A DNA stretch of 64,000 nt from Candidatus Kerfeldbacteria bacterium (GTDB taxonomy: Bacteria > Patescibacteriota > Patescibacteriia > UBA9570 > XYC2-FULL-38-9), in contig JACPGJ010000008.1 of the NCBI GenBank assembly GCA_016182555.1, forward strand, positions 299,147 through 363,146, in the 5' to 3' direction. The translations under genes were made by a program, and so were the position numbers. Below the pieces are notes generated by a model. That model saw only the letters and a program-made list of their open reading frames with translations, was not told the origin of the DNA and did no database searches. Positions 10,325 to 55,936 of the stretch are shown here, piece by piece (within the stretch, counting starts at the first letter, position 1; the number at the start of each line of letters is the position of its first letter).

Positions 10325-10325
10325 A

Positions 10326-11732
10326 CTACTGAGTATCAGTATTCTGTTTATTGGTATTGCTATTCGTTTGGGTTTTGGTTTTCGTTTGTGGTTGTTCTAC
10401 ATTCATGGAGACCGTTGCCTCATTAGAAAAGGATACCTCTCTGCCTTCCACTTTTGCAGATACCACTGATGCACTTACATTCAAATTTTTTGTATCCGTA
10501 GTTGCATCATCAGCGAGCGTCGTTGCATACGTCAACTTCATGGTTTCCTGTGGAGACAACGTATCAATCACGGGAAAGGTGTATTCATCTTCGGTAAACA
10601 ATCCACCAATAAAACTGAGCACCACCTTCACCTCTTTTATTTCAATATCAGAAGTATTTTTCACTTCAATATTCAACGGCACTTTTTCTCCTGGCGCTAC
10701 GGTTTCTGAAGCACTTATCTGCAAATCAATTTCTGGGTTCACGATCACGACCAATGAACTTTTTTCACTCTGCAAACTGAACGTATTATCTATTTCCACA
10801 ATCCCTAATTTCACATGGAACTCCTTCGTTTCACCTGAATCACCATCGAGCGTGCCAACAATCGTAATCGTTTGCGTTTGTTTTGGTTCCAGAGTATCTA
10901 TCCGCCATTCATTGTCCTCTACAGTTGCAGCAGGGTCTGTGGACGTCACGGAAAATCCATGGGGATATTCCATCAATACTTTCACATGATTGAGCGCTAA
11001 TTTCGAGGTATTCGTATACTGCACTTTGTATGTCAGCTCTTGATTGGACTGCACTTGACTCGGTGCATCGACAGAGACATCAATAATAGAAGAAGTAATC
11101 GTAACTGTTGATTGTGCCGATTCTTGAAAATCGCGTTGGAAGTTCGATGGTTGATACGTGAATAATGCAGAGATAGTTTTCTGTTCATCTTTTTGACCAA
11201 CGAGTTGCCCCGTAATACGAATTTTTCCACCCGTTCCCGCAGGCAAATTTTCAATATTCCAGGAACGATTATTATCGCTTGAAGCGATGGGCAGGCTGCT
11301 TGCGAAGGAAAAACCATCCGGGTACAACAATTCAATTTTTCCTTTTGTCAATGGAACATTTTTATTATTCATGTAATCCAATTCGATCGTCACCACGTCA
11401 CCGGACGCGACCTTGTCTTCCACCTGCATGTTCATTGTGACCTCTCCATGAGCCGAACCGCTTTGCTGACGAAAAACCACATAGCCCAAATACATCACTC
11501 CGAGGAGTAACACCATTATACCAATAGCGAGGACAATCCATTTTCCACGCCGTGGTTTTTTTTCCATCGTGGTCATGTCCACTTCCTCTTCATCGTCATC
11601 AGCGTACATCAAACGCAAATCATCATCTGCATTCACTTCTTGCACTTTTTCATCAGGAATATCGGGTTTCGCAGGAACCGGTGCGGGGTTATATTGTTTT
11701 CTTTTTTTTGATCGTTTTGGGGTGTGTGCCAT
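10326..11732 (-). CDS. Hypothetical membrane-anchored protein with repeated beta-rich extracellular domains (DUF11-like); start codon uncertain
   Basis: ORF 10326..11789; probable start at MAHTPKRSKKRK (11732) or a later Met; acidic N-tail, single TM (WIVLAIGIMVLLLGVMYLGYVVF), then T/S/V-rich repeated modules. Confidence 0.45.
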   Translation of the reverse strand: MAHTPKRSKKRKQYNPAPVPAKPDIPDEKVQEVNADDDLRLMYADDDEEEVDMTTMEKKPRRGKWIVLAIGIMVLLLGVMYLGYVVFRQQSGSAHGEVTMNMQVEDKVASGDVVTIELDYMNNKNVPLTKGKIELLYPDGFSFASSLPIASSDNNRSWNIENLPAGTGGKIRITGQLVGQKDEQKTISALFTYQPSNFQRDFQESAQSTVTITSSIIDVSVDAPSQVQSNQELTYKVQYTNTSKLALNHVKVLMEYPHGFSVTSTDPAATVEDNEWRIDTLEPKQTQTITIVGTLDGDSGETKEFHVKLGIVEIDNTFSLQSEKSSLVVIVNPEIDLQISASETVAPGEKVPLNIEVKNTSDIEIKEVKVVLSFIGGLFTEDEYTFPVIDTLSPQETMKLTYATTLADDATTDTKNLNVSASVVSAKVEGREVSFSNEATVSMNVEQPQTKTKTQTNSNTNKQNTDTQ

Positions 11733-12504
11733 TGATATGCATTGATTGATTGCGATACAAAGCATACCACAACACAGCACCAAAAACAACCATCACCAGA
11801 GAAAGATATTGGGCAACCGTCAAGTGAAAAAAACGAGTATCAGAGAACGGTAAATCCGTGGCACGCCAAAAATCGAGCACAAAACGGGTGATACCATAAA
11901 AAAATAAGAAAAAAATGCTGTAGAATCCTGGGTTGCGTTGCGGCCGTGTGAGCCAGAGAAAGAAAAAAATCATCGCTAAAATGAGCCCATCGATTGAAAG
12001 ATACAACCCATGGTTATGGCGCACAATACCATCAATGTATTTCTGACCCAAAAAAAATGTCGTTGGTGTACCAGGATGATCAAAAATGAAGAAACATCCC
12101 AAACGACCAATGGCCATACCAAGTGGCAAACCGAATACACACACATCCGCATACTCAAAAAAAGATAACTGTCGGCGATGTAAAACAAACCAGCCAGCCA
12201 ATGCTGCTCCGATGAATCCACCAGAAATCGACATTCCCCCTTTCCAAATTTTGAATATCTCGAGCAGATGATGAACGTAATAAGAAAACTCACTGAATAC
12301 AAATACCAGTCGCCCCCCAATGAAACTGGCCAAAATCACCCAAAACGCTAAATCAGCAACAACCCCTTGATCCAGCCCCCGTACCCGAGCGGCGTAGCGA
12401 GCGACAGCAAAACCAGCAATAATACCCAGTGCAACCATGAGCCCCCATATATGAATAGTCAGTGGACCAAGAGAAAATTGCACCCATTGAAAATACGGCA
12501 ACAT
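11689..12504 (-). CDS. lgt: Prolipoprotein diacylglyceryl transferase
   Basis: Multi-TM 271 aa, LGPLTIHIWGLMVALGIIAG N-term and GRLGCFFIFDHPG (Lgt G-R-x-G-N/C-F motif region). Confidence 0.75.
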   Translation of the reverse strand: MLPYFQWVQFSLGPLTIHIWGLMVALGIIAGFAVARYAARVRGLDQGVVADLAFWVILASFIGGRLVFVFSEFSYYVHHLLEIFKIWKGGMSISGGFIGAALAGWFVLHRRQLSFFEYADVCVFGLPLGMAIGRLGCFFIFDHPGTPTTFFLGQKYIDGIVRHNHGLYLSIDGLILAMIFFFLWLTRPQRNPGFYSIFFLFFYGITRFVLDFWRATDLPFSDTRFFHLTVAQYLSLVMVVFGAVLWYALYRNQSMHINGTHPKTIKKKKTI

Positions 12505-36680: not shown

Positions 36681-39600
36681 TTACGCACATTTCGAATAGC
36701 CGCATCCATGGCACATCATGCATCCTTCAGCCATAGCGAGTACTGATCCGCACTCTGGGCATTCTGGTGCCACTCCGGCATCAGCAATAGAACTCGCTTT
36801 CATCGAAATGGTTGTTTGATGGGTGGTTGCCGTATCTGTTTGCGTGACGGTTACGGATTCTTGCGTTTTCACTGGGCTACTGTTGCCTAATAATTCATCT
36901 GCTGTTTGCAATGGTGCTGGCGTCGCGGCAAACTGTAAATTCAACGTGCCTTGAGCAGAATTCACATGGTTAGCCAGTACCTGAGCAATCGCATCAGCAA
37001 TCGAGAGAATTTGACCATTCTTTCCCCACGTTGGTGCTGGGCCACGAATACCTTTAATTTGATCTACCACTGTTTCTACTGGAATACCAGAACGCAATGC
37101 CAAAGAAACTAAACGGCAGATCGCTTCTGATTTCGCGGCAAAAAACCCGCCCGATTTTCCAATAGTCGCAAACACCTCAAATGGTCGGCCAGCTTCATCG
37201 TGGTTAATAGTCACGAACATTGTACCGTAACCGGTTTTAATTTTATAGGTGAATCCAGGCACCATCTCTGGGCGAGAACGTGGTGATGGAGGTGTTAAAC
37301 CAGGCCCCGTGTTCATTGGTTGGGCAACTGCAGGTGCTGCAGCAGCGAATTGAGCGGGAACCGCTGTTTGTACCTCTTCTTTTTTCACTTCTTTTTTATC
37401 ACCAGCATCTTTTTTATCTAAAGATTCCAATACAGAAATATCACGAGAGCCATCACGATAATAGGTCACCCCTTTGCATCCCATTTTGTACGCTTGCATA
37501 TACAATTCTTTCACCTGTTCCATGGTATGTTCATTTGGCGCGTTCACCGTTTTGGAAATAGATGAATCAGTATATTTTTGTGCCACAGCTTGCATGTTCA
37601 CGTGTTCCATTGGACTCAGCTCCTTGGCACTCACAAAATATGCTGGTTTTTCTTCTTCTGGCACATTCGGGTGTGCTTTTCGCCACTCTTCATATAATGG
37701 ATGGTAGACAATATGTTCTCCTAAACGATCTTTCCGTTTGAAAGCAAAATCATATACCGGTTCAATACCAGAACTGACGCCGGCAAGAATACTCGTTGTA
37801 CCAGTTGGTGCTTGGGTAAGAATCACCGCATTACGCACGCCGAATTGTGCAATATCGGCTTGTAAGTCGCGCGGTAAACGTTGAATAAACTTCCCTTGCA
37901 TATATTTTTCGCTTTCAAAACCGGGAAACGCTCCTTTCTCTTTCGCAATTTCCATAGACATGCGGTAGGATTCATCGCGAATCACCCGATAGACCTCTTC
38001 ACACCATGCGACAGCTTCTTCTGATCCATAACGAATCTTCATTTTAATGAGCGCATCGCCCAAACCCATGGTACCCAAACCGGTACGACGAATTTTTTTC
38101 TGCATCTCTTCATTTTCTTTGAAGAAGTACGGAGTTGAATCAATCACGTTATCTAAGAAGCGAATCGCCGTGTGCACTGTTTCTTTGAGCGCAGCGGTAT
38201 CAAAGACCCCATCGTTCACAAATGCTGCCAAATTCACCGCACCCAAATTACACACACTCCATGCGCCAAGACCTTGTTCCCCACAATTGTGCACTATTAA
38301 CCCATTGGCTGCAAAAGAATGTGTCACTGGTTCTGTCAGATCATACACCATTTCCTGACCAAGATGCTCTAACCCGACAAATGTCGCTACAAATTTTTGT
38401 GTATATGGCCCATCGGTATATTGACTAAGTAATTTTGTTAGCTTTTGTTGTTTTGCAGATGATAAAAATCCTACGGATGTAGCAAATATCTTCAACCCGG
38501 CCTTGCTAATCACCAAATCATGTTGCGCCTGACAAGGATATGATGCTAATCCACCGCGACCATCGGGCAGTTCTCGCACTTGTTCCATGCGCCGATTCGC
38601 ATACAAACGACTCACGATACCAAAATTTAACAGTAATTGTTGCACTTCTTTCAATAGATCTTCTGAAATAGAAGTGAGCCGAATACTCACACCTTTTTCT
38701 GGTGAACCAGCGACATGTCCATCGGCAGTAAACAACCCTTGCAAAAATCCCTTCTGCATTTCTGCTGTGCCTTCCCATACTGGTTGTGGCACACGCAACT
38801 TCGATTCTACCGTCATCCCTACGTTAGTGAATATCTGATTCAACCGTTGGGATGAAATCCGAGCTTCATCACGGCCGGCAACTTCGGCAACAGTCACCGC
38901 AACAGATGAATGTTTGCCATTGGTATTGTTGGTTGAAGCGTTAATCGCACCATTAACGGCTTGAACAAGCCGCGGTGCTACTTCTCGTTTTTCTTCACCA
39001 AAAAATGACAGTACCGCCGTATGCTTAGATTGATTAAAATGACCATCACCGATAAACCAGCCTAACACTTGACCCCAAGATTGATCACCGGTGGTCCCAA
39101 AACCGCCAACGCGATCAAGTAATAATATCTGATCACCTGTTTGCAAATGCTGCGCTTCTACCCAACCACGTGCTGTGCGTACTTGATGATTGGCCGTCAG
39201 TTTGAGTTCATATCCTTCTTTGGTTTGTAATCGATACACATCTTTGATGCCCGTTTCAATAATTTGCGATGTGCGCTCCGTTGACTGTGCACCCAAACGA
39301 CTATCAATAGTCAAGTTCACTTGCTGTTGCGCCTCGTATAATGCTTTGATCGTTTTGAGCCCGTCGGTCGTTGAAACACGCGTATCGCCCGTGACGCACG
39401 GATTCACACAAATAATTTTTTCAAAATACCACGTATTTGATTCCTTGTTATAACGCTCCATAAACACCAAGCCCGGCTCACCAGATGCATGAGCAGATTC
39501 GCAAATCAAATCCCACAATGTGCGGGCTTTGATTGTTTTATAGACTTTACCTCCCCATTTTAAATCCCAATCTCCGTTCTGTTCCACGGCTTCCATGAAC

Positions 39601-40205
39601 CGATCAGAAACACAGACAGAAAGATTGGCATTCGTGACCAAACCCATGGTGCGTTTTACGGTAATAAACTCTTCAATGTCTGGGTGATCGTCATTCAGCA
39701 TTAACATCAGTGCACCGCGGCGAGATCCACCTTGAATCACCAAGCCAGTCGCATGCGAATACAACCCACCAAAAGACACCGCACCAGAAGCAGTACCATT
39801 CACTCCTTTGACATACGCACCACGTGGACGCAGTGAAGAAAGGTTCACACCCACGCCGCCACCACGAGACATAATTTCGACCATGGTTTTCACTGAATCA
39901 AAAATGCCACCGCGACTATCTTCTGGAGATGGGATGACATAACAATTATAGAATGTGAGGTCTACACCAGAACCGGCGCCAGCCAAAATACGACCACCGG
40001 GTAAAAACTTGAATCCTTCCAAAGCCTGATAAAACTTCTCTTCCCATTCTTTCTTTTTTTCAACCGTGGTTTCAATGCTGGCAATACCGCGAGCAACGCG
40101 GTGCCACATCTGTTCGGGGGTATCTTCAACACGACTCCCGTTTTCATCTTTGAGTGCGTAGCGATCAAAAAACACTTTTTGGCGCAATCCAGTAAGGTGC
40201 TCCAT
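36681..40205 (-). CDS. nrdJ: Adenosylcobalamin-dependent (class II) ribonucleotide reductase NrdJ, interrupted by a 371-aa intein
   Basis: Active-site motif split as ...ICVNP | CVTGDTRV...LIVHN | CGEQGL (NPCGEQ of class II RNR). The gene start (40203-40205) was confirmed by eye to be cat/ATG. C-terminal CxxC...CxxC tail (CPECGS...CMMCHGCGYSKCA). Intein 38286..39398 with LGWFIGDGHF and LQGLFTADGHV. Confidence 0.9.
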   Translation of the reverse strand: MEHLTGLRQKVFFDRYALKDENGSRVEDTPEQMWHRVARGIASIETTVEKKKEWEEKFYQALEGFKFLPGGRILAGAGSGVDLTFYNCYVIPSPEDSRGGIFDSVKTMVEIMSRGGGVGVNLSSLRPRGAYVKGVNGTASGAVSFGGLYSHATGLVIQGGSRRGALMLMLNDDHPDIEEFITVKRTMGLVTNANLSVCVSDRFMEAVEQNGDWDLKWGGKVYKTIKARTLWDLICESAHASGEPGLVFMERYNKESNTWYFEKIICVNPCVTGDTRVSTTDGLKTIKALYEAQQQVNLTIDSRLGAQSTERTSQIIETGIKDVYRLQTKEGYELKLTANHQVRTARGWVEAQHLQTGDQILLLDRVGGFGTTGDQSWGQVLGWFIGDGHFNQSKHTAVLSFFGEEKREVAPRLVQAVNGAINASTNNTNGKHSSVAVTVAEVAGRDEARISSQRLNQIFTNVGMTVESKLRVPQPVWEGTAEMQKGFLQGLFTADGHVAGSPEKGVSIRLTSISEDLLKEVQQLLLNFGIVSRLYANRRMEQVRELPDGRGGLASYPCQAQHDLVISKAGLKIFATSVGFLSSAKQQKLTKLLSQYTDGPYTQKFVATFVGLEHLGQEMVYDLTEPVTHSFAANGLIVHNCGEQGLGAWSVCNLGAVNLAAFVNDGVFDTAALKETVHTAIRFLDNVIDSTPYFFKENEEMQKKIRRTGLGTMGLGDALIKMKIRYGSEEAVAWCEEVYRVIRDESYRMSMEIAKEKGAFPGFESEKYMQGKFIQRLPRDLQADIAQFGVRNAVILTQAPTGTTSILAGVSSGIEPVYDFAFKRKDRLGEHIVYHPLYEEWRKAHPNVPEEEKPAYFVSAKELSPMEHVNMQAVAQKYTDSSISKTVNAPNEHTMEQVKELYMQAYKMGCKGVTYYRDGSRDISVLESLDKKDAGDKKEVKKEEVQTAVPAQFAAAAPAVAQPMNTGPGLTPPSPRSRPEMVPGFTYKIKTGYGTMFVTINHDEAGRPFEVFATIGKSGGFFAAKSEAICRLVSLALRSGIPVETVVDQIKGIRGPAPTWGKNGQILSIADAIAQVLANHVNSAQGTLNLQFAATPAPLQTADELLGNSSPVKTQESVTVTQTDTATTHQTTISMKASSIADAGVAPECPECGSVLAMAEGCMMCHGCGYSKCA
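38286..39398 (-). mobile_element. NrdJ intein at the catalytic-cysteine site, with LAGLIDADG endonuclease domain
   Basis: Residues 270-640 of the ORF; junction codons verified manually (tgc 39396-39398; aat 38286-38288, tgt 38283-38285). Confidence 0.85.
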
Positions 40206-40279: not shown

Positions 40280-40295
40280 TTACTATATATAGTGT
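40280..40295. promoter_or_regulatory. NrdR box 1 upstream of nrdJ
   Basis: ttACTATATATAGTGt matches the NrdR-box consensus acaCwAtATaTwGtgt at 14/16 positions. Confidence 0.7.
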
Positions 40296-40400: not shown

Positions 40401-40470
40401 TTCGATGTGGATAAGTCTTACTTTATCCTGTGACACCACTATATATGGTGGTGTATACGCTGTCAGCTTT

Positions 40471-41037
40471 CTAATGCTCAACACCAAAACGCGGAATAAA
40501 ATCTTCACCGTATGGACTTTTTGTGGTCGTCATCACCGTAATTAAATCTGCTGCATTTAATAACTCTTTAGGAGCATTCCGACCAGTCAGTATCACCTCT
40601 GTTTCCTGATGCTTATTATCTAAAAAATCCAACATATCAGTCGTTTTAATCAACCCATGGTGCATGGCCGTATTCACTTCATCAAGAATCAAAATATCTG
40701 GGCGTTTCATCACCATGGCTCGCCGTGCATAATCCAACCCTTGGTTTGCCAAGTAGACATCCATAGCGGACGGATCGTGCAAATTCGTGAATTCTGGTGT
40801 ACCGAACTGAACAATATCTACATACGGTTTTAAACGATCATGCGCCAAGAGTTCACCAAAATCTTTATGGCCCTTGAGAAATTGAATCACTAGTACATTC
40901 ATCTTTGCTCCGGCTGCACGAAGAGCTACGCCCAACGCTGCGGTCGTCTTGCCTTTTCCATCACCCGTATACACATGGATATAGCCCAAGCGTTTTTTCG
41001 GGTTGAATTCGTTTGTGGGTCGTTTATGCCAATACAT
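40471..41037 (-). CDS. cobO: Cob(I)alamin adenosyltransferase (CobO/BtuR family)
   Basis: P-loop YTGDGKGKTTAALG and overall 188-aa CobA/CobO architecture. Confidence 0.85.
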   Translation of the reverse strand: MYWHKRPTNEFNPKKRLGYIHVYTGDGKGKTTAALGVALRAAGAKMNVLVIQFLKGHKDFGELLAHDRLKPYVDIVQFGTPEFTNLHDPSAMDVYLANQGLDYARRAMVMKRPDILILDEVNTAMHHGLIKTTDMLDFLDNKHQETEVILTGRNAPKELLNAADLITVMTTTKSPYGEDFIPRFGVEH

Positions 41038-41039
41038 AG

Positions 41040-41522
41040 TTACCCCTTCTTTTTACCATATTTTCTCTGTTTTGGGGAGAGCTTCTTCAGTGCATCAGCA
41101 AACTCGTCCACATCTTCAAATGAACGATACACAGAAGCAAAACGAATATACGCTACTTTATCTAATTTTCGTAAGTATTTCATCGCGATTTCTCCAATAG
41201 TCGTCGTAGAAATATGATCCTTTCTGGCTTTTGCTTGTATTTCTTGTTCAATTTGTTGCACTACCCGTTTAAGGCGTTCTGGAGAAATAGGGCGTTTTTG
41301 TAAAGGTAATTTCAAACTGCGAACGAGCTTCTCTTTATCATACGCTTCTTGGGTACCGTTCACCTTATCTACAGTCAACGTCAAAATTTCAATTTCTTCA
41401 ATGGTAGAATAGCGAAAATGACAACTTGGGCACTCCCTGCGTCGTCGAATAGTTGAACCATCTTCAATCACGCGAGTATCAATAACTCGAGTGTCTTCAG
41501 TGTGGCAGGACAAGCAGCGCAT
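41040..41522 (-). CDS. nrdR: Transcriptional repressor NrdR
   Basis: Zn ribbon MRCLSCHTEDTRVIDTR...CPSCHFRYSTIEEIE plus ATP-cone (KRPISPERLKRVVQQIEQEI). Confidence 0.95.
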   Translation of the reverse strand: MRCLSCHTEDTRVIDTRVIEDGSTIRRRRECPSCHFRYSTIEEIEILTLTVDKVNGTQEAYDKEKLVRSLKLPLQKRPISPERLKRVVQQIEQEIQAKARKDHISTTTIGEIAMKYLRKLDKVAYIRFASVYRSFEDVDEFADALKKLSPKQRKYGKKKG

Positions 41523-41541
41523 AATTATGTAATCATAGTTA

Positions 41542-43230
41542 CTACCTGGGATTTAAACTCTGTAGTGTTGCTTCTTGAGGAGGTTGTTCATTCAATAATA
41601 CAGTTTTGATAAGTGAAAAAAATATATCTGAATATTTCTCCCATAACGCATAGAGAATAACACTAGCATCGTCCCGAACAGCAGAATCAACAGTGTAGCC
41701 ACTATTGACCAGCATGGCATCCATCAAAGCAATATCCACCGCCCCTCCTCGTTGAATGGCATCTCTACCCCGTTTAGTAGTTGCTACAACATCGCTCAAA
41801 GATTCCGGACGGACAATGCCTGGTTTCAAAACACGTTTTTTGCCATTCATATTTGCTGCCCAAAATGTTCCGTTGACTTGTGTAATATTTTTATCACCGT
41901 TCGGTTCTTGGCCTATCACTAATCCAGATTGTTGCACTGGAATTCCCGGTATAGCCTCTATCGTTTGATTAATATCGGCAATACGTTTTACTTCTTTCAG
42001 CAATTTTTCTGCTGTTCTTTGATTTAAAAAATCTGGATTAAAGAAAACTTGAATATGAGCTTGCTCTACTACTAAGCCCAAAAAATCAACTGTATGCCTC
42101 ACGAACTCTTGCAAACCCGACACACCACATCCTCTATGAAGATATTCAGCACGTGCGGAAGACGCAACATTTCTTATCCTTGCTACATCCACTGCAATAG
42201 GCTGATATCCTTTTTTAGACATTTCTGCATCTTGTCTTGCTAAAACGTCGGAGACTGTTAAAGCATTTTGAGTTGTAGAATTTTTAGAAACTTTATTAGT
42301 GTGTAGAACTACTACTCTATATGCTGAATCGGCAACTTGTTCATGATCTTCACCGTCATGGGTAACCTGTGCAAGGGCATCTCTCACAGTACACACCTGT
42401 TGCAACCCAGGAACTGTTTCCGGTATATTTGTGGATTCTAAATTTTGTATGCTCTCTTTCAGTAATGGATAATAATAATCTCTAATAGCGGCATTTAAAA
42501 GTGCATGGCATTCCTGCCTATCCGCAATCATATTTTCTTCTGTTTGTTTCAATGCATTCTTGTTTTCCAAAAAAACATAACGAATCGCTTGCAAAACTTC
42601 TGATAATTGCTGCACCACTGCTTGAATATTTTTTGTATCTACATGTATCAATGCATGAAAACGTCGTACTCTTGCTTCAGTGCGTTTTGGAACAATGTGT
42701 TGACCAAAAAATTCCATAACTGCAGCAGGCGCGGAATCAGAAAATCCAACAGTAGCTAAACTATCCAGAAGCGTTTCTTCCCATAGATGATGTTGTATTG
42801 GATCTCCGCCTTCACTCGACAGCGGTAACGGCATATCGAGTATTTGTTTCAGGCTGATTAATAGAGTTTTTAATTGTTGTTCGTATGCCTTATTTTTTGC
42901 ATTTCCTGTTTGTGTGCGTGAATATTCCGCAAGAAGTTGATCAAGAATAATCACACGGCGCAGCAGCGATTTTTTTAAAGCCCATGTTGCTTCAGCCTCT
43001 GGATTAGACTGTGTCAATTGTTGACCCAATAAATCCAATTCACATAAAATAGTTTGATCAGCTTCGACAATCCCCTGCTGCAATCGCTCTGGATCACACG
43101 CAGGAATCTGGCGAATTGCTTGTTCGAATGCTACTGCTGACTGTCCTGCTTTGTTTCTTTCTCTTCGTGTTGGTAATTCAGACATAAAAATAGCGATAGT
43201 GTTCTTTCTACTATTGAAATCTGTATACAA
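41542..43230 (-). CDS. Hypothetical 562-aa cytoplasmic protein of unknown function
   Basis: No TM, no signal peptide, no motif I recognise; patches of ~27-32% GC. Wedged between ftsZ and nrdR with 5-19 nt spacers. Confidence 0.5.
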   Translation of the reverse strand: MYTDFNSRKNTIAIFMSELPTRRERNKAGQSAVAFEQAIRQIPACDPERLQQGIVEADQTILCELDLLGQQLTQSNPEAEATWALKKSLLRRVIILDQLLAEYSRTQTGNAKNKAYEQQLKTLLISLKQILDMPLPLSSEGGDPIQHHLWEETLLDSLATVGFSDSAPAAVMEFFGQHIVPKRTEARVRRFHALIHVDTKNIQAVVQQLSEVLQAIRYVFLENKNALKQTEENMIADRQECHALLNAAIRDYYYPLLKESIQNLESTNIPETVPGLQQVCTVRDALAQVTHDGEDHEQVADSAYRVVVLHTNKVSKNSTTQNALTVSDVLARQDAEMSKKGYQPIAVDVARIRNVASSARAEYLHRGCGVSGLQEFVRHTVDFLGLVVEQAHIQVFFNPDFLNQRTAEKLLKEVKRIADINQTIEAIPGIPVQQSGLVIGQEPNGDKNITQVNGTFWAANMNGKKRVLKPGIVRPESLSDVVATTKRGRDAIQRGGAVDIALMDAMLVNSGYTVDSAVRDDASVILYALWEKYSDIFFSLIKTVLLNEQPPQEATLQSLNPR

Positions 43231-43235
43231 TAAAC

Positions 43236-44399
43236 CTACATCATCTTCTTTCTAATGAAGGCTGGGATATCTAAATCTGAATCATCAGAATTATCGACTT
43301 TATCTTGATCCATAATAGACCGAGCAGCTGGAGCAGATGAAGATGGTGCTGGTGTGGAAGCAGATTGTGGCTGTTCATCCATGCTACGGTTCAAACTGCT
43401 GATATCACGAAATGGATTCGAAGCCTGTATTTTTGTTGTAGAACGAGCAACATTACCGAAACCCGTGGCCACGACCGTCACCTTCAACTCATCTTTCATA
43501 CTTTCATCAATAACTGAACCGAAAATAATGCGCGCGTTCGGGTCAGCAGATTCGGTAATAATCCGTGCCGCTTCATTCACTTCAAACATACCCAAATTTG
43601 CTCCACCCGTGATGGTAAACAGAATTCCCTTCGCGCCATCAATGGACATTTCAAGTAATGGGCTGTCGATGGCTGCTTTAGCGGCGTCAATTGCGCGATT
43701 TTCGCCACTCGCTTGACCGATGCCCATGAGGGCAGAACCGGCGTTGGACATGACGGACTTCACATCGGCAAAGTCGACGTTGATTAAACCCGGAACGGTG
43801 ATTAAATCAGAAATACCTTGCACACCTTGGCGCAGTACTTCATCCACAATACCAAACGCTTCAAGCAAAGATGTTTTCTTATCAATAATTTGGAGTAAGC
43901 GGTCATTCGGAATAGTAATGATGGTATCTACTTGTTCAGAGAGTTGATGATAAGCCGCTTCCGCAATTTGCCGACGTTGTGCTCCTTCAAATTCAAATGG
44001 TTTTGTCACAACAGCGACAGTAAGCGCACCAGCTTCGCGAGCAAGTTGCGCTACACGTGGCCCAGCGCCAGAACCCGTACCTCCACCCAAACCACAGGTA
44101 ATGAACACCATATCTGCACCTTTGATGGCTTCTTTAATTTCATCTTGGTTTTCTTCGGCCGCCTTATATCCCATTTCCGGATCCATACCCGCACCTAACC
44201 CACGAGTGGTGGTTTGGCCAATATGAATTTTCTGTTTTGCTGGCGAATGATGCAATGCTTGGGCATCCGTATTCACAGCGATAAATTCCACGCCTTTGAG
44301 TCCGGCGTCGATCATACGTGAGATGGCTGAACCTCCTGAACCACCAACACCGATCACTTTAATTTTGGCAAAGGTTTCGATTGCTGGTTTCACTTCCAT
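43236..44399 (-). CDS. ftsZ: Cell division GTPase FtsZ
   Basis: [13 protein letters not shown], tubulin signature [11 protein letters not shown]-terminal conserved tail DIPAFIRKK. Confidence 0.97.
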
Positions 44400-44436
44400 A
44401 AAATAATTGTCGTGTTTAATTTTTTCTGATTTATTA

Positions 44437-44545
44437 TGTGTACAAAAAATGTATTCAGTTTGTACAATGAAAAAAATCTACGATCACATTCTACAATATA
44501 TGCCAAAATATGACAAGTCTTCTTGTATACAAAATGTATTCAGTT
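44437..44545. repeat. Two ~22-bp direct repeats (TACAAAA(A)ATGTATTCAGTT) containing TGTACA/TGTATACA palindromes, in the ftsZ upstream region
   Basis: Copy 1 at 44437-44460, copy 2 at 44524-44545; a further TGTACA at 44462-44467. Confidence 0.6.
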
Positions 44546-44699
44546 GAATGTTGAAATAACCACTTGAATTATTTGATGACTTACCAGTGTTCGAATTGAA
44601 TTTAGAAAATCAGTCATAACAATTGATTACTCTTGATCGAATACCAACAGCTTTAGCCCGAAGAGGAAACTTAACTTGACAGTACGTGGTTCGCGCACA

Positions 44700-44927
44700 T
44701 TATTTTCTTCTCAATGCATCGTACTCCTTAACTGAAATTTGAATATCATTCAATATTTTTCGTAACAATCCACGACTAATTTCTTTGTTGTGAACAGGAA
44801 CAACAGTTGTACGGCCATCGGCGTGTCTAAAAAAAACATGCGAACCTTCAGCGTCTCTTTGTACAAAGCCTAACTTCAACAGTATTTTAATAAAAGGTTT
44901 TGGTTTAATCGGAACCAATTTAGGCAT
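44700..44927 (-). CDS. hicA: Type II toxin HicA (mRNA interferase)
   Basis: 75 aa; KILLKLGFVQRDAEGSHVFFRHADGRTTVVPVHNKEISRGLLRKIL is the HicA/YcfA family signature. Confidence 0.85.
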   Translation of the reverse strand: MPKLVPIKPKPFIKILLKLGFVQRDAEGSHVFFRHADGRTTVVPVHNKEISRGLLRKILNDIQISVKEYDALRRK

Positions 44928-45156
44928 GTGAAAATTCTAGATTTTGGATACCTACAAAACGATGTTTTTTTATTTCTTCGGTATCATCATTACGGAGACA
45001 CAATTTAATAACTTCTGATAAATTTTTTAACATTTCTTCTTGCGTATCTCCTTGTGCGTGACAACCAGAAAGAGCGGGTATAGAACCAATAAAAACACTA
45101 TCCTCGTCTTGTTCAATATAAACAGTGAATTGTAGATTTTTAGAATATTTTTTCAT
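44920..45156 (-). CDS. hicB: Type II antitoxin HicB (UPF0150 family)
   Basis: 78 aa; FTVYIEQDEDSVFIGSIPALSGCHAQGDTQEEMLKNLSEVIKLCL matches the HicB N-domain; overlaps hicA by 8 nt. Confidence 0.8.
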   Translation of the reverse strand: MKKYSKNLQFTVYIEQDEDSVFIGSIPALSGCHAQGDTQEEMLKNLSEVIKLCLRNDDTEEIKKHRFVGIQNLEFSHA

Positions 45157-45262: not shown

Positions 45263-46513
45263 TTACGGCATCAAGGATTTAAACCACTTCCCCATTTTAC
45301 TGGTCACGTTTGCGACAGAAGAAAAATTGGTAATGCTTGGGCGGTTCAGGCCAGCATGCAACCCATGGCCCCACTGCACCAACCCAACAGCTGTGGCAAA
45401 AACAGGGTCTTGGACTTTATCAATCGCTGTTTGAATATTGAGCGGTGTGCCAATAGATGCAGATGTTCGGAAATGATCTTTGGCCATTTCAATAAGACCG
45501 TTCAACTTTGCTCCCCCACCCGTAAACACAATTCCGGCTGGCAATTTACTATCACGGTCCACGGCCTGTAATTCCTTTTTAATCATGTGAAAAATTTCCT
45601 CTATGCGGGCTTGAATAATTTCAGCGACTTCTTTGCGAGAAACTAACACCTGCTCTTTGGCATCGATACTCGCTAAATCAATATCATCATGTTTACTCAC
45701 TTGGTCCGCCAGAGCCGTGCCAAATTGAATCTTCACCGTTTCCGCTACATCAACTGAAGTCCGCAAGCCAATGGCAATATCATTCGTAATATGCCCAGAA
45801 CCGACTGGTAAAATTTTGGTATGAATGACATCGCCTTCTTCAAATACCATCAAGCTCGTGGTTGCACCACCAAAATTGACTAAAGCAACGCCCAAATCTT
45901 TTTGACGCTTTGTTAATACGCTTTCCGAAGCGGCTAAAATTTCCACCACTAAATCATCTACATCTACGCCCGTGCGATAAATAGATTTGGTAATATTTTT
46001 AACTTGTGAAGTCATGCCTAAAATAATCTGTGCATCAACTTCAAGTTTAATACCGGTCATGCCCACTGGATCTTTGATTCCTTTCTGGTCATCCACAGAA
46101 AATGTGCGTGGAATGACATGCAAAATTTCATAATTTGGTGGTGTTGCCACACTTTGAGCGGCTTCAATCACCCGTTCCACATCATCTTCCGCTACTTCGC
46201 CATTCGCTTTTGAAATAGCCACCACACCATGACTTTCTTGCGCAATAACATGCGCGCCATTTACACTCACCAACGCATGCTCAATCGGCACACCGGTCAT
46301 CCGTTCACATTTTTCCAATGCCGAAGAAATGCTCGATACGGCATCTTCAATGCTCGTCACTGTGCCCTTATTAATACCTTCTGCTACTGATTCGGCTGCG
46401 CCAATAACCTGTACCATCTGGCCACCATCAGGAGCCGGTTTCATTTGCGCACTCACCACACGAATAGTGGTGGAACCAATATCGAGGCCGGTGATAATAT
46501 CTTCTCGAGGCAT
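45263..46513 (-). CDS. ftsA: Cell division protein FtsA
   Basis: Actin-like ATPase: GLDIGSTTIRVV ... VNFGGATTSLMVFE ... GIVFTGGGAKLNGL. Confidence 0.95.
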   Translation of the reverse strand: MPREDIITGLDIGSTTIRVVSAQMKPAPDGGQMVQVIGAAESVAEGINKGTVTSIEDAVSSISSALEKCERMTGVPIEHALVSVNGAHVIAQESHGVVAISKANGEVAEDDVERVIEAAQSVATPPNYEILHVIPRTFSVDDQKGIKDPVGMTGIKLEVDAQIILGMTSQVKNITKSIYRTGVDVDDLVVEILAASESVLTKRQKDLGVALVNFGGATTSLMVFEEGDVIHTKILPVGSGHITNDIAIGLRTSVDVAETVKIQFGTALADQVSKHDDIDLASIDAKEQVLVSRKEVAEIIQARIEEIFHMIKKELQAVDRDSKLPAGIVFTGGGAKLNGLIEMAKDHFRTSASIGTPLNIQTAIDKVQDPVFATAVGLVQWGHGLHAGLNRPSITNFSSVANVTSKMGKWFKSLMP

Positions 46514-49213: not shown

Positions 49214-52200
49214 TTAAGGAGTAATAGTATACCACGTTCCTCCTGGGTCAAATTGACTCGTTATACCATAATTATAACAAGAACATTCAGCATTTGAAAT
49301 ATCTTCACACGCATCAAATATCGCTGTCGTGTCGGTATATGCCCCTTCCCCATCATATTCTAAATGAGCATAAATGGAAGCGGTTTGGGAATCGTCAGGG
49401 TTATTCGCATCGACTTTCCACATATACGTAAAGGAATTCGCTGGGCAGAAGAAATGCTGGTTGACGGTATCCCAACAAGTTCCGCCTTCTTGGTCATAAT
49501 ATGCATTATCTTCGGGTGCAGACGGGCAATCCTGCACATGTTCTTCTCCCTCATAAACCCACGGCGTTGATCCGGCGTTCCAAGGGTCAGCTTGATCGGC
49601 AGCATAGAAGATATTGTACTGATCGGTTGGCAATGTTTGACCGAATAGATTACCCAGTGCTCCTTGCCAAGATGGCCACACGCTGGTCGTCATCGTTTTC
49701 ACATACGAACCAAATGTATCACTTTGTGGTCGTGGATAATACCCGTGTTGCGCATAAAAATCATTTGCCAAATTACTAATGGTGGTAATGTCATTCACGC
49801 GCTTGGTGTCACGAATCAATTTCTCTTGGTCAGAATTTTCACATTCCGCATGGCTCAAATTCATGTTAAACCGAACGTTATTGATCAATTGATCGGCAAT
49901 TTTCAATAGGGTCTCTTCGTCGCTAAACGTAAAAAGATAGATGTTATTATAAATTGTTCCATCTAATACATTGCTAGCAGCAACATAATAACTTAATCCA
50001 TCTTGTACCGCTTCATAGCCGTTTACTTGCAATGAAGAGACCTCCCCTGGGTTTGGTACATTTTGAGCATACCATTGGTCTGGGGTGAGGTCTTCGGTGT
50101 TTGGATACACACGAATACCAACCACCTGTTCTTCATTTTCTGGGTTCACAAACAAATATTGTCGGAAAAAATCTCCATCCGGATCAGTGGTAATAATTGG
50201 TTCTTCTGTTAAAGTAGGTAAGCCATTATCTTTACAGTAAAGCAAGTCAAAATTTTGCCGTAAATCATCACTTTCATCTGTATTCGCATATTCCCACACA
50301 TTGTCTTCTCCGCAGAAAAATACATTCACATTGGCTGTAACATCATCCACAGACCAATCTGCTTCCGTGGTGGGAGTTGCCGTGACCGTAATGCCATCTT
50401 CGGCATGATTTTCATCACCGGCCGTGACCGTTTGGGTTTCGGCATTCGGATCACTGCCTAGCTCAACCCAAGCGGTATTATTACAACGCGCATCGTCTTT
50501 ATATGGGCTCCAGGTATATTCCCAACCCATGATATTTGTGGGAATAATTTCTTGATCATCTGATGTATGCATACTCACCGTAAATGTGGTTTGTGCTCCC
50601 GATGAAGTAAACGTATACGTAGCTGTATCACCTTCCGAAGAACTCCCATTGTCATTATTGATAAGTACCAGATGATCTGGTTCACATTCGTTAGCTGCCG
50701 TCATGAAATAGATCTCTTGGGTGCCTTGCTCCACAGCCAGCGTATTGGCTTCGCTCACGATTCCGGTGTCTGTATCTGTATTACTCACGAACGTCAATCG
50801 ATATACCGTATTTGTTTTCCAGCCATCATTTGGCGTCACGGTGATTGTTTTTCCATCTGCGCTATCAACCGTAATCGCAACAACCGTATCATTAGCAATA
50901 CCTTCAGAAAAATCATCGGTTGAGTAACCATCTTCATAGTCTAATGCGTTGAGTCTGACCGTATCGGTTGCCGAATCGCCGGTCGCCAAAAAACCAGTCA
51001 TCGGTTCACTAAATACCGCACTAAATTCTCTATTTGGACAAACCTCCGTATCACCATTGACTGGATCAGAAGAAACAAATGTTGGTCTTTCTGCACAATA
51101 GGTTTCGCCAGTATCATCCACGACACATTCTCCATCACTACCACACACAGTATCTTCTGTTCCTTCCGTACATTCACCGCTAGAATCATCATCGCACACA
51201 CCATCTACACAATAATATCCCTCTTCACAATCATCGGCGGTGATACAAGATGTACCAAAATCTAACCCATTGCTCAAACAAGCATTGACCGACACCACTG
51301 CTGGTCCAGAGGTGGCGCCATACGGAACAGTGGCAGAAGATTTGCCTGTTCCCACATACGTATAGTTGTCACCACTAATATAATCGATGGTATCATCAAA
51401 CGTACTTTCCGGATCAGCACCTTCTACTACCTCATCAGTAAATAAATCTCCTGTACTTTGGCCATCGGCTGGGTTTCCAAATTGGTCACCCATAAATGTG
51501 ATGGAATCGCCATCCTGAGTTCCCTCCGCTGAAGCGGCATATCCTTCAACCGAAGAGAGCTTACACAATACCGGTACTCCGGAATCTGGCACATCGGCAC
51601 CACTGCTACACTGTGCCGTGGTAGAAAAAGTTTTATCATCATTACTATTATACCCATTATTGGAAACCACCACCGCATAAGACTGCCCTGTATCTAACGC
51701 TTCCGGTACATTGGCAATAATTTGCGTATTTGACCACCCATCGGTGCAATACAATGCCGCTTCCTCACCACCAAATGTCACCGAGGCATCGGAATCATAA
51801 GATCCAAAAAAGCAGCCGTTAATCGTTGTGGGTCCACCAGCAGGACCGGAATCTTGTACAATGCTTGTCACCACCGGTGTGCACACACCTTCTTCAGAAC
51901 AGGTAGCTTGGTCACTGCCGCAGGATTCCTGACATTGTTCATCTGTTGTACAGGTATTACAAAACTCCGCAGCTTGGCAGATACCATCTCCAGAACAGCA
52001 GCCGCTGCCGCATTCATTATTGGCGCTACAAGAAACCGAAAACTCTAATGAGTTGGAACAATATTCTGAAGCAGCAGCACAATCCACATCTCCACCTTGT
52101 GTTACGGCACGGAACCCATCTTCTCCACTCACCGCACCAGAGGCTACTTCTGTACTTACGCGCTCTGGTGTCCAGGCAGTTGCTTCTTCGGACGCAGCAA

Positions 52201-55200
52201 CACGTGTACCGGAATCCGCTTCCGTTCCATAATCATCATCACCTAAAAAGCTTGCGAGTCCTTCTTCGTCACCCAATGCTTTTCCATAGATCGTTACAGC
52301 ATCTTCTTCTGCGCCTGCTTCTGGGCTAATAGCACAAATACCGGGGTAAAAATTTTGATCAATATGATAATCCGTACCGGCTTCCGTCGAATCACCATAT
52401 TGTGTTTCTACTTGTAGTTTATAATCCTGTGTTGGTAAATCGAGCGGCATTTCAACAATAATTTGACTATCATCCCAGGTATCTCCACACGTTGCGCTAT
52501 TTGGCCAATCAGTTTCCGTTGAAGTTGCACCATCCAGCGTATTCCAGTACACATTTCCTTTTTGAGAGCCAAACATACACCCTTGAATAGTCACCCAGGT
52601 ACCCTGAATCGCACTATTTGGCGTAAAACTCTTAATCACTGGGGTACAATGTCCGGTATCGGTATTACATGTAGATGTGTTGCCACTCCCATCGCTGCAC
52701 GATGCACAGTCTGCATTGGTCGTACATGCACCAAGATCAACAATAAATTCCGCATCATCTGTTTCCAAATCCACAGCCGTTTGAATCGTTGCCGTTCCTT
52801 CATTCTCTGCATCATCTCCAACAACAAATATTTCCATCAGTGGATCATGATCATCTTCACCGGTCGCAAATTTCGCTACCGTATGATCTGCTGGGTCAGT
52901 GCTCGGAATACTCCAATTCCAACTATACGAAGAACTATCCAGTAATGCACAAGCCGGGCCATAGGCATTTCCGCTATATACTTCACTCTGACCATCCGCA
53001 TTTTTAATGGTAGATCTGCTCGGAGAAACATTCACACTCTCAATCGCACACGGCGTTGTGGTGTTATCGGTTTTGAAATGCATGGTATATGCACTTTCCA
53101 TGGCAATACCGGAGGTACCGGTAATACCAGTGGTGAGCGTCAACTGGTACCACGTATTTGGTTGTAAGTAAGATGAATCTGTCCCGGGTCCATCAGTTTG
53201 CCCATCCTGATTACTATCTTGAACTGTTCGATCAATGGCATATTGGAAACCGTAATAGTTCGTACTACCAGAAAGATATGACCACTCCGTATTCGTAAAG
53301 TGCCCATAAACCGGCAATGGTGAAAATGCACTATTGAATGTGTCTCCAGCGTTATATTGTTCTAAAAAAACCGTATCGCTATTGAATGTATCGGTGTTAA
53401 TTTGTTGGTCAAACAGTACCCCAAGAGCAGCATTGATACACGCCCGTTCTTCATTCGGTTGTGGATTTGGTGAAGGGTACACATCTGCTTCGGCATCGCA
53501 AGAATTTAATTCGGCAACACGTGGCCCAGCACTGCACGGGAAATTGTATTCACGACCATTACTACTCAAACCGGTATCGCCATCATAAATTGTTACCCAA
53601 TAATCACCAGGGGTCATGGATTCATTTGTCGTGCCTTGAATAGATGTATCCGTCCAGTCACCGGAAGGAGTTTCCGGATGAAAATAGACGCTAGAATCTG
53701 CCAAAGAAGTAAAGGGTACCTCGCTTCCACCTTGAGCAGTTCCAAAACCATCGCCGGTAATGGTAAAGCTGGCTCCAGCGGAATTATCACAACTGGGCAC
53801 AATTTCACATAAGTTCGGCCGAACATTATCTGAGTAGGTAAATTTTTGAAGATCCGAATAATGGCCATCTGCATGAATCACCTGGATATAGCCCACATCA
53901 CCCGTAACCCATTGGTGTTCTCCGGTGGCATCAGTATAAGTTTCTGGTGCAATCGCCACAATTTCATCATTGGTCCATACATTACCGCAGGCCGTTGGTT
54001 GCGCCATGGTGGATGTGCGAGTACCATCCAAGGAACGCATAATCACGGTGCCAGGCGTATCACCATAATTATCTCCACTCATCGTAATATATTGACCAAC
54101 TGCCCCATCACTTGGATCTACGGATTGAATATACGGGCTATACACATCAACTTCAGAAGATGATGGGTCACTTTCTTCTCCAGCCACACTCACGCGCAGC
54201 GTGGAATCATTCGTGCCGACTGGCGTACGCAATGATAATTGATCGCTGCGTTGATCTGCTTCATCCATACAAATATCTCCAGCCGACGTATTATCTTGCA
54301 TGTTACCGTAATGATCGGTATTGAAACAGGTATTCACGGTTTCTGCGGCGTAAATATTGCCATCTTGAAAAATGACCTCGGCATGCGGCGCCAAATACAA
54401 ACCTGATATGGCGAGTGTGCCTTGGCCATATTCCACGCAAACACCGGCTTCGCAGCTACCAGAGCCACATTCGGTATTGGTTGTACAACTTTGACCGCTG
54501 TGTAAGCCGGCATAGTCACCATAATAATCTCCACCAGGATTCACCGATTCAATCACCGGTGTACAGGAAGCATTATCTCCAGTTTCCCATGTGATGGGGT
54601 CTTCAGTTGCACCCGCGGCCTCATCAAAACCATAAAAGTTATCCACGGTGGAACCTTCAGCAATACCGTCACCATCGCCATCGAGTGCGTTTCCACAATA
54701 ATCGGTAAGCGCACCTGCAAAATCGTTACTGGCATCGCCACCATATAATCGCGTACTATAATATGAAAAACTATTCAACGTGGTTTCTGGTCGAACTTGA
54801 GCGTAATCAAAATCTCCACCGAAACTCCACCCTTTTAATGCGAGTGGGTCCGCCCAATCTGGTGCAAATGGCACATCTGGTGTACCGGCGCTATCTAAGA
54901 CAAATGATTGATCATCGTTGAATGTGGACGTCAACATTGGCTCAGAAAAATCGAAGTTAATCACTGTATTCGTACAGACCTCTGCTTCACCATCTGCCGG
55001 AAATGGTGAATTGGAATGAACTTGTACTGTTGGTGGTGTCTCATCTTTTTCACTACCTGTCGTAAACTGCCAAATATAGGAAGAGGTGAGCGCCAACCGA
55101 TCATCAATACCATCATCTGGCGTATCGTCATAACTGAATACACCATCAGTTCCACCCACAATAACCGCTTCATACGTGGTGTTTATTTCTAAATCTGTAT

Positions 55201-55936
55201 CTGGAACAAAATTGAATGTCGAGGTGGTGTCCCCCGGACCAAATGCAATAACGCCAGCAACCGTATCACCCACACAGCGGTTTTCCTGACACAAGCCTGA
55301 CCCACAAACATTATTACTTGAACATTCCCCGCCGTCTGCTACACCCCCAGGAATATGGAGGTACCAGGTATCTGGTGTCACGGTACTGGTATCAATATCT
55401 TTGCTCATGCGTACTTGAACGGCACAGAGGGAAGCACCCGTTTCTCCTGATTCCGGATCTGTAGACAACACATAAAAACTGGAATCGCTGGTGGGAATAT
55501 ACCCACCACCACTCGTGCCGCTAGCATCATCTATAGACCCACCAGTTGCATCACTAAAAAACCCAATAAGCCAGAGCACCAGGCCCCATGAGACCATAAT
55601 AATCACCAGGCCAATCCCCGCATTGCGTAATACCGCCTTGGCTTTGTTCACTTTATCTGGGTTACCGGCGGAGGTCAGCCACATGTAGCCGCCATAGATA
55701 ATAAAAATAACCGCCACCAAGGCCATGAGCGATAGAGCAACATTCACAATATCTACCACGATGGAAATAATATCGTTATTTCCTAAAGAGCTGGCAATAC
55801 CGGCGTAATCTGTTGTTATTTGGGCGTATGCAGGAGTGACAGTTGCAAATATTCCGAAAAGAAAAAAGCTCATGGCGGTAAAACAACCACGCATGGCTTT
55901 TTTCAGATTTCTATTTTTCGGAAGACGTTCCCGCAT
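49214..55936 (-). CDS. Giant (2240 aa) cysteine-rich surface protein: signal peptide + pilin-like double-TM N-domain, then repeated PSI-like Cys modules each followed by IPT/TIG-like domains
   Basis: SP MRGCFTAMSFFLFGIFATVTPAYA; two hydrophobic helices flanking YGGYMWLTSAGNPDKVNKAKAVLRNAGIG (TrbC/VirB2- or T4SS-pilin-like topology). At least five CxxxxCGSGxC modules followed by TPVI(x)S(x)xP...G...VTIxG..FG segments. Confidence 0.7.
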   Translation of the reverse strand: MRERLPKNRNLKKAMRGCFTAMSFFLFGIFATVTPAYAQITTDYAGIASSLGNNDIISIVVDIVNVALSLMALVAVIFIIYGGYMWLTSAGNPDKVNKAKAVLRNAGIGLVIIMVSWGLVLWLIGFFSDATGGSIDDASGTSGGGYIPTSDSSFYVLSTDPESGETGASLCAVQVRMSKDIDTSTVTPDTWYLHIPGGVADGGECSSNNVCGSGLCQENRCVGDTVAGVIAFGPGDTTSTFNFVPDTDLEINTTYEAVIVGGTDGVFSYDDTPDDGIDDRLALTSSYIWQFTTGSEKDETPPTVQVHSNSPFPADGEAEVCTNTVINFDFSEPMLTSTFNDDQSFVLDSAGTPDVPFAPDWADPLALKGWSFGGDFDYAQVRPETTLNSFSYYSTRLYGGDASNDFAGALTDYCGNALDGDGDGIAEGSTVDNFYGFDEAAGATEDPITWETGDNASCTPVIESVNPGGDYYGDYAGLHSGQSCTTNTECGSGSCEAGVCVEYGQGTLAISGLYLAPHAEVIFQDGNIYAAETVNTCFNTDHYGNMQDNTSAGDICMDEADQRSDQLSLRTPVGTNDSTLRVSVAGEESDPSSSEVDVYSPYIQSVDPSDGAVGQYITMSGDNYGDTPGTVIMRSLDGTRTSTMAQPTACGNVWTNDEIVAIAPETYTDATGEHQWVTGDVGYIQVIHADGHYSDLQKFTYSDNVRPNLCEIVPSCDNSAGASFTITGDGFGTAQGGSEVPFTSLADSSVYFHPETPSGDWTDTSIQGTTNESMTPGDYWVTIYDGDTGLSSNGREYNFPCSAGPRVAELNSCDAEADVYPSPNPQPNEERACINAALGVLFDQQINTDTFNSDTVFLEQYNAGDTFNSAFSPLPVYGHFTNTEWSYLSGSTNYYGFQYAIDRTVQDSNQDGQTDGPGTDSSYLQPNTWYQLTLTTGITGTSGIAMESAYTMHFKTDNTTTPCAIESVNVSPSRSTIKNADGQSEVYSGNAYGPACALLDSSSYSWNWSIPSTDPADHTVAKFATGEDDHDPLMEIFVVGDDAENEGTATIQTAVDLETDDAEFIVDLGACTTNADCASCSDGSGNTSTCNTDTGHCTPVIKSFTPNSAIQGTWVTIQGCMFGSQKGNVYWNTLDGATSTETDWPNSATCGDTWDDSQIIVEMPLDLPTQDYKLQVETQYGDSTEAGTDYHIDQNFYPGICAISPEAGAEEDAVTIYGKALGDEEGLASFLGDDDYGTEADSGTRVAASEEATAWTPERVSTEVASGAVSGEDGFRAVTQGGDVDCAAASEYCSNSLEFSVSCSANNECGSGCCSGDGICQAAEFCNTCTTDEQCQESCGSDQATCSEEGVCTPVVTSIVQDSGPAGGPTTINGCFFGSYDSDASVTFGGEEAALYCTDGWSNTQIIANVPEALDTGQSYAVVVSNNGYNSNDDKTFSTTAQCSSGADVPDSGVPVLCKLSSVEGYAASAEGTQDGDSITFMGDQFGNPADGQSTGDLFTDEVVEGADPESTFDDTIDYISGDNYTYVGTGKSSATVPYGATSGPAVVSVNACLSNGLDFGTSCITADDCEEGYYCVDGVCDDDSSGECTEGTEDTVCGSDGECVVDDTGETYCAERPTFVSSDPVNGDTEVCPNREFSAVFSEPMTGFLATGDSATDTVRLNALDYEDGYSTDDFSEGIANDTVVAITVDSADGKTITVTPNDGWKTNTVYRLTFVSNTDTDTGIVSEANTLAVEQGTQEIYFMTAANECEPDHLVLINNDNGSSSEGDTATYTFTSSGAQTTFTVSMHTSDDQEIIPTNIMGWEYTWSPYKDDARCNNTAWVELGSDPNAETQTVTAGDENHAEDGITVTATPTTEADWSVDDVTANVNVFFCGEDNVWEYANTDESDDLRQNFDLLYCKDNGLPTLTEEPIITTDPDGDFFRQYLFVNPENEEQVVGIRVYPNTEDLTPDQWYAQNVPNPGEVSSLQVNGYEAVQDGLSYYVAASNVLDGTIYNNIYLFTFSDEETLLKIADQLINNVRFNMNLSHAECENSDQEKLIRDTKRVNDITTISNLANDFYAQHGYYPRPQSDTFGSYVKTMTTSVWPSWQGALGNLFGQTLPTDQYNIFYAADQADPWNAGSTPWVYEGEEHVQDCPSAPEDNAYYDQEGGTCWDTVNQHFFCPANSFTYMWKVDANNPDDSQTASIYAHLEYDGEGAYTDTTAIFDACEDISNAECSCYNYGITSQFDPGGTWYTITP

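Follow-up and report, generated by a model that had tools for sequence, protein, structure and literature searches.

A large singleton gene, probably imported, between ftsZ and nrdR in a Candidatus Kerfeldbacteria genome

The stretch of DNA considered here, called the window, comprises 64,000 nucleotides of contig JACPGJ010000008.1 from a Candidatus Kerfeldbacteria bacterium (positions 299,147 to 363,146). Within it a large gene of no recognisable family, hereafter the orphan, lies on the minus strand between ftsZ and nrdR (Table 1), and it is probably an imported accessory gene of restricted taxonomic distribution that occupies a variable ftsZ-nrdR slot in one Kerfeldbacteria lineage. In its longest form the open reading frame (ORF) starts with a TTG and runs without interruption for 562 codons (41542..43230), beginning 5 nt from the ftsZ stop codon and leaving 19 nt between its own stop and the nrdR start. 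A preliminary description of this DNA had given these gaps, together with the neighbouring ftsZ and nrdR, a toxin-antitoxin pair and lepA in the window, and all were verified. The stop-free run of 562 codons compares with a maximum of 210 codons in 2000 shuffles of the bases of the same region; the long uninterrupted frame described there is thus confirmed. The G+C fractions at the three codon positions (GC1, GC2 and GC3) are 0.56, 0.37 and 0.27, the first two being similar to those of the neighbouring genes. Because of this length and the neighbour-like GC1 and GC2 the orphan is a genuine coding frame.

The same description had proposed a protein of 562 amino acids (aa) with a good start. The TTG frame does exist, but the ATG at 43185, which is the start annotated by NCBI and gives 547 aa, is likelier, because the TTG sits in what was ancestrally the 3' untranslated region (UTR) of ftsZ and the context of the ATG is host-like. 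All 45 nt from the TTG to the ATG belong to this ancestral ftsZ 3'-UTR. The ATG itself stands in the context ATTTTT-ATG, which lacks a Shine-Dalgarno (SD) sequence and is common to ftsZ and many other genes of the window. Gene starts of the window mostly have no SD match (31 starts; mean anti-SD duplex energy -1.9 kcal/mol), and many of them, those of ftsZ and the orphan included, follow an A/T-rich 'ATTTT' run. The 547-aa product is identical to the NCBI hypothetical protein HYV32_05545 from a Candidatus Kerfeldbacteria metagenome-assembled genome (MAG), which is known from one contig of 598,550 bp. It has a mass of 60.9 kDa and an isoelectric point of 5.8, is rich in Q, L and R and contains little G. 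No transmembrane segment was found, the highest Kyte-Doolittle mean over 19 residues being 1.04, at residue 481, and the product would be a soluble, cytoplasmic protein of about 61 kDa. Modelling with AlphaFold2 in single-sequence mode gave a predicted local distance difference test (pLDDT) score of 36 for the full length and likewise for residues 286-547; at this low confidence the predicted fold has a helical N-terminal part of about 290 aa followed by a mixed alpha/beta C-terminal part of about 260 aa.

Searches for homologues returned nothing else. Two word-indexed searches over 5.8 billion clusters, at E<=0.001 and at E<=10, and one exhaustive HMMER search over 1.84 billion representatives, at E<=0.001, each matched the orphan to itself only. 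It matched no family in Pfam (strict) or NCBIfam and was without a match in PHROGs, in PDB sequences, in the INPHARED phages and PLSDB plasmids (tblastn), and in the IMG/VR and JGI metagenome contigs, while the PADLOC-DB defence models yielded 0 families at E<=1. When the whole protein, its halves and its thirds were compared with Pfam at E<=10, the sole sub-threshold hint was PF02550, the N-terminal domain of acetyl-CoA hydrolase/transferase, at residues 287-380 (E = 0.03-0.07; 13.5-14.6 bits against a cut-off of 24). The low-confidence secondary structure of these residues is beta-alpha-beta, a point of likeness to that family, but the assignment was rejected because the score is below the gathering threshold, only 80 of 198 profile positions are covered and there is no fold match. 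Foldseek comparison of the models (pLDDT 36) with the PDB gave only noise at E>2, which was discarded, and no paper joining nrdR, ftsZ and 'candidate phyla radiation' was found in the literature searched. By these searches the orphan is a complete singleton, with no detectable relative in the databases covered. This is in agreement with the preliminary description, which had called the protein unrecognisable and had seen in it neither a motif nor a transmembrane segment: no family or homologue emerged at any sensitivity applied, and the profile and homologue searches, Pfam on the halves included, produced no confident family match.

The surroundings of the orphan are conserved, and FtsZ was used as the anchor for comparing them. 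Nine genomes were fetched for the closest FtsZ proteins (78-84% identical), and a more distant set was drawn from GTDB species representatives (FtsZ 54-71% identical). Among these representatives the order ftsA-ftsZ-nrdR, often followed by nrdJ and cobO, is a widespread Patescibacteria arrangement, and in the 24 more distant Patescibacteria loci that have both genes ftsZ and nrdR are 2-613 bp apart with no large gene between them. The window and its close relatives share, as far as the contigs reach, a block consisting of a giant protein with pilin-like and Big_5 domains, a TSP3 protein, a hypothetical protein, ybeY, dagK, ftsA, ftsZ, nrdR, cobO and nrdJ, with DUF6580 after nrdJ in L081, L087 and L090. 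The ftsZ-nrdR slot is readable in eight of the nine close genomes, and the ninth (L082/L083) was counted with the empty slots. The orphan is in none of the eight: six slots are empty, at 14-358 bp, and two hold unrelated cargo, namely an NosD-like beta-helix protein in L086 and an ECF sigma factor with a second protein in L091. Neither cargo resembles the orphan, and a tblastn search with the orphan through the whole set of related loci that had been fetched gave nothing at E<=10. In blastn comparisons of the window with its relatives, DNA homology breaks off exactly with the stop codon of ftsZ and begins again with the start codon of nrdR. As judged from this comparison, the orphan is an insertion specific to the Kerfeldbacteria lineage of the window, because homology breaks at these two codons and the gene is absent from the loci of relatives. 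The alternatives offered earlier, that the gene was either lineage-specific or acquired, are thus well founded, as it is missing from all eight readable slots and from the 24 distant loci; it is far from being universally present at this position, and in six close relatives nrdR directly succeeds ftsZ.

On the same comparative grounds, unrelated cargo has repeatedly landed in the ftsZ-nrdR spacer in this clade. The cargoes of L086 and L091 have in common with the orphan the slot, the orientation and the lineage-specificity. They differ from it in sequence. In both of these genomes, moreover, the ftsZ terminator is preserved and the cargo ends with its own terminator, whereas the orphan has neither. 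A strong hairpin with a U-tract follows ftsZ in five of the six empty relative slots (fold z = -2.5 to -6.5). In the window, the remnant of the ancestral ftsZ 3'-UTR holds AGAACACTATCGCT, which agrees at 13 of 14 positions with the 5' arm of the hairpin that terminates ftsZ in L081, a score reached by 1 of 300 shuffles (p about 0.003); the 3' (loop-distal) arm and the U-tract are missing. Neither spacer of the window folds better than its shuffles (z = 0.10 between ftsZ and the orphan, z = +1.33 between the orphan and nrdR), and a consensus scan of the minus strand from ftsZ to cobO found no terminator-like site. These results show that the insertion destroyed the rho-independent terminator of ftsZ by removing its loop-distal half and brought none with it.

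An imperfect 13-nt direct repeat has its left copy at the 5' junction and its right copy shortly before the orphan stop; since chance alone supplies about 20 pairs of the same quality in the region, it is a weak hint of microhomology and not a target-site duplication. Homology of the 3' junction to ancestral spacers is not significant. The spacer between the orphan and nrdR holds the -10-like TGATTACATAAT, which resembles an extended -10-like box, TGnTACA(A/G)T, found 6-9 nt before the nrdR ATG in relatives. This short distance suggests that the nrdR mRNA may be leaderless or nearly so in the relatives. The window also keeps TGATTACATAATT directly before the nrdR ATG. The orphan itself is probably transcribed by read-through from ftsZ, because no hairpin flanks it, and the best sigma-70-like site of the region (10 of 12 matches) lies in the AT-rich spacer upstream of ftsZ.

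In composition the orphan leans foreign, although the deviation is modest. Its G+C content is 39.8% against 43.6% for the window, and the difference sits in the third codon position: its GC3 of 0.265 is the lowest of 47 ORFs in the window (mean 0.397, standard deviation 0.057; z about -2.3). Measured against the pooled genes, its codon-bias distance of 0.34 exceeds that of every other gene of 300 aa or more (0.236 +/- 0.062 for this class), and its dinucleotide signature falls at the 91st percentile of equally long segments. The AT-rich patches reported in the preliminary description are another matter. The lower mean G+C content stands, but patches as a distinct feature of the gene were rejected, for G+C content in 60-nt steps has a standard deviation of 0.074 in the orphan (range 25-55%) and of 0.075 over the whole window, which is ordinary fluctuation; in ftsZ such steps range over 32-65%.

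These observations can be brought together in a scheme in which the gene was imported into the short ftsZ-nrdR spacer of one Kerfeldbacteria lineage and landed inside the ftsZ terminator without bringing along one of its own. It would then be transcribed by read-through from the ftsZ promoter and translated from the ATG at 43185, whose A/T-rich surroundings without an SD sequence are typical of this genome, and nrdR may be expressed from the same transcript, from the residual -10 box TGATTACATAAT, or from both. In Escherichia coli most ORFans have been found to be imports and not inventions (uz-Zaman and Ochman, 2026; PMC13012023). The orphan shares with horizontally acquired bacterial ORFans such as these the absence of homologues outside the lineage, insertion relative to the syntenic region of relatives, an AT-richer composition, atypical codon usage and a function that cannot be assigned. 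It differs from them in sitting in a symbiont of the candidate phyla radiation (CPR), inside the ftsZ-nrdR core cluster and not in a prophage or island, and in having no promoter and terminator signals of its own. As to the source, the best guess, a tentative one within the import scheme, is that the orphan may have come as cargo from a phage or mobile element not yet sampled and may serve in conflict or in a particular niche, rather than as a core factor of division. Within 7 kb of it lie two more selfish elements specific to the lineage, the hicBA pair and an intein in nrdJ.

Several points weigh against this account. The compositional deviation amounts to about 1.7-2.3 standard deviations, which is modest, and only one MAG contig is known to carry the gene. 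The collections searched yielded no donor, and no integrase, transposase, reverse transcriptase domain, inverted terminal repeat or clear target-site duplication was found. Read-through from ftsZ has the absence of hairpins as its one argument, the guess of a conflict or phage origin draws on context only (the nearby hicBA and intein), and the cargo in the sister slots is not defence-related.

Other origins fare worse. Birth of the gene in place, either de novo from the spacer or through runaway divergence or overprinting of a resident gene, could appeal to the ancestral spacer that makes up the 50 nt immediately upstream and perhaps also the final codons. It is nevertheless very improbable: a gene of 1.64 kb is set against ancestral spacers of 14-358 bp, searches with blastn and tblastx through the remainder of the window and the loci fetched from relatives gave no similarity in any frame, and self-blastp revealed no internal repeats in the orphan. 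Import from an unsampled source is favoured over such an origin because the spacer is too short, there is no similarity to resident DNA, GC3 is low and the codons are atypical. Still less credence can be given to an assembly chimera in the MAG. The presence of the orphan on one contig only would agree with an artefact of this kind, but the two flanks are halves of a single conserved block, collinear and correctly ordered and oriented, and the junctions coincide exactly with the ends of genes and preserve a portion of the ancestral terminator.

The remaining alternatives concern what the protein does. The orphan could be a functionless passenger, a recent import whose frame is still intact, neutral or spuriously expressed and bound for loss, and its status as a singleton seen in one MAG, without copies in the population or in sister genomes, the very low pLDDT of the whole protein and of its C-terminal part, and the lowest GC3 in the window would all suit this. 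We consider it unlikely, as a stop-free frame of 1.6 kb with protein-like GC1 and GC2 would hardly last without selection, the start context is host-like and any prediction from a single sequence can be expected to have a low pLDDT. The small size and deletion bias of CPR genomes also count against a passenger, and that so long a frame has stayed intact in a small genome speaks for some function. A lineage-specific division factor, that is a long, helical cytoplasmic protein co-expressed with FtsZ that either acts on the Z-ring, by binding or regulating it, or links division with NrdR and the supply of deoxynucleoside triphosphates (dNTPs), would be analogous but not homologous to EzrA, ZapA and SepF. 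As the orphan directly follows ftsZ on the same strand and the terminator between them is gone, stoichiometric co-transcription is plausible; the N-terminal 290 aa or so are predicted, with low confidence, to be helical; and the 547-codon frame is intact in a streamlined genome. EzrA is similar in size to the orphan, a further point in favour. The likeness to EzrA (PF06160), SepF (PF04472) and ZapA (PF05164) thus comprises adjacency to ftsZ, cytoplasmic location, predicted richness in helix and an EzrA-like length. What separates the orphan from these proteins is the lack of a profile match (neither Pfam at E<=10 on the whole, halves and thirds nor NCBIfam gave a Z-ring regulator family), of an N-terminal or other transmembrane anchor and of conservation in sister genomes. 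The gene is absent from all the relatives whose division cluster is otherwise identical, unrelated cargo occupies the same slot in sister genomes, and its codon usage is atypical, so that a division factor is rather improbable. The earlier suggestion that the position hints at a role in division or with the toxin-antitoxin pair likewise found no backing, the sister slots carrying unrelated cargo or nothing.

In the account preferred here, import of an accessory gene, the orphan is an ordinary phenomenon for uncultivated bacteria and is unusual only because it is large, landed within the ftsZ terminator and has no transcription signals of its own. Bacterial ORFans are usually much shorter than its 547 aa. 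It represents a well-delimited gain of a gene in a streamlined CPR genome, with an insertion point that can be placed inside the ancestral ftsZ terminator. If the gene is expressed, the insertion joins the ftsZ and nrdR transcription units and puts the orphan under the control of a division gene. There is a poor chance of something more novel, either a new-fold protein wired into the ftsZ transcript as a private division regulator, acting on the divisome or coupling division to dNTP supply through NrdR, or a new single-gene defence or conflict protein. Were the division-regulator version true, an episymbiotic CPR bacterium would have a division regulator of its own; otherwise the orphan is one of many unclassifiable singletons in uncultivated bacteria and opens no long-standing question.

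Table 1. Features of the orphan locus in the window and of the corresponding loci in relatives (positions are those of the locus named in the first column).
Locus	Feature	Position	Strand	Remarks
Window	orphan coding sequence	41542..43185	minus	547 aa; from ATG 43185; stop TAG 41542-41544
Window	ancestral ftsZ 3'-UTR remnant	43186..43235	minus	holds AGAACACTATCGCT and alternative TTG 43230
Window	AGAACACTATCGCT, terminator-arm match	43205..43192		
Window	13-nt direct repeat, left copy	43197..43209	minus	AGAAAGAACACTA; imperfect; 5' junction
Window	13-nt direct repeat, right copy	41563..41575	minus	AGAAGCAACACTA; imperfect; 21 nt before orphan stop
Window	orphan-nrdR spacer	41523..41541	minus	19 nt, TAACTATGATTACATAATT; no terminator; also holds TGATTACATAATT
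Window	ftsZ	43236..44399	minus	upstream flank of orphan
Window	nrdR	41040..41522	minus	downstream flank of orphan
Window	cobO	40471-41037		corrinoid adenosyltransferase
Window	NrdR-box-like palindrome	40280-40295		TTACTATATATAGTGT
Window	NrdR-box-like palindrome	40436-40451		CCACTATATATGGTGG
Window	nrdJ	36681-40205	minus	B12-dependent ribonucleotide reductase
Window	spacer upstream of ftsZ	44400-44700		300 bp, 26-35% GC
Window	best sigma-70-like site	44516..44488		
Window	hicA	44700-44927	minus	
Window	hicB	44920-45156	minus	
Window	ftsA	45263-46513		
Window	gene for 2240-aa protein	49214-55936	minus	
Window	lepA	1429-3237		
L081	empty slot			71 bp
L081	extended -10-like box	9215-9235		
L082/L083	empty slot			169 bp
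L085	empty slot			88 bp
L085	extended -10-like box	1575-1594		
L086	slot with cargo	7320-9986		888-aa NosD-like beta-helix protein; Pfam 1e-16; hydrophobic, signal-peptide-like N-terminus
L086	extended -10-like box	10030-10048		
L086	cobO-nrdJ slot	11127-11954		275-aa CarboxypepD_reg-like protein
L087	slot			358 bp
L087	possible small ORF in slot	7275-7535	minus	at most this reverse ORF
L087	cobO-nrdJ slot	8608-9498	minus	296-aa reverse-strand gene
L088	empty slot			14 bp
L089	empty slot			137 bp
L089	extended -10-like box	7262-7280		
L089	cobO-nrdJ slot	8356-9183		275-aa CarboxypepD_reg-like protein
L090	empty slot			49 bp
L091	slot with cargo	7434-9033		ECF sigma factor and 345-aa protein
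L091	cobO-nrdJ slot	10219-10911		230-aa gene

Some further features of the neighbourhood deserve mention. Among the close relatives compared, hicBA sits between ftsA and ftsZ in this genome only; in those showing both genes ftsA is followed directly by ftsZ, with gaps of about 155-395 bp. The GC3 values of hicB (0.165) and hicA (0.263) are very low and, because of this and its absence from relatives, hicBA is a second lineage-specific insertion in the division cluster. The NrdJ protein of the window (1174 aa) carries an intein with a LAGLIDADG homing-endonuclease domain at residues ~270-640. The NrdJ proteins of relatives have 781-827 aa and no intein, and the GC3 of the intein in the window is 0.367, which is host-like. 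Scans for Rfam families and tRNA genes over the whole window gave none. The spacer between cobO and nrdJ is a second variable slot in the relatives, with a CarboxypepD_reg-like protein in two of them and other genes in two more, while in the window it is an empty, AT-rich spacer of 265 bp. Within it, upstream of nrdJ, are two palindromes that resemble NrdR boxes, matches to which number 4 in the window against 0.98 expected. Finally, the 2240-aa protein has an N-terminal T4SS-pilin domain together with TIG and Big_5 Ig-like domains, and both it and the TSP3-repeat protein downstream are conserved in all relatives, upstream of ybeY-dagK-ftsA; the dinucleotide and tetranucleotide signatures of its gene are the most atypical in the window.

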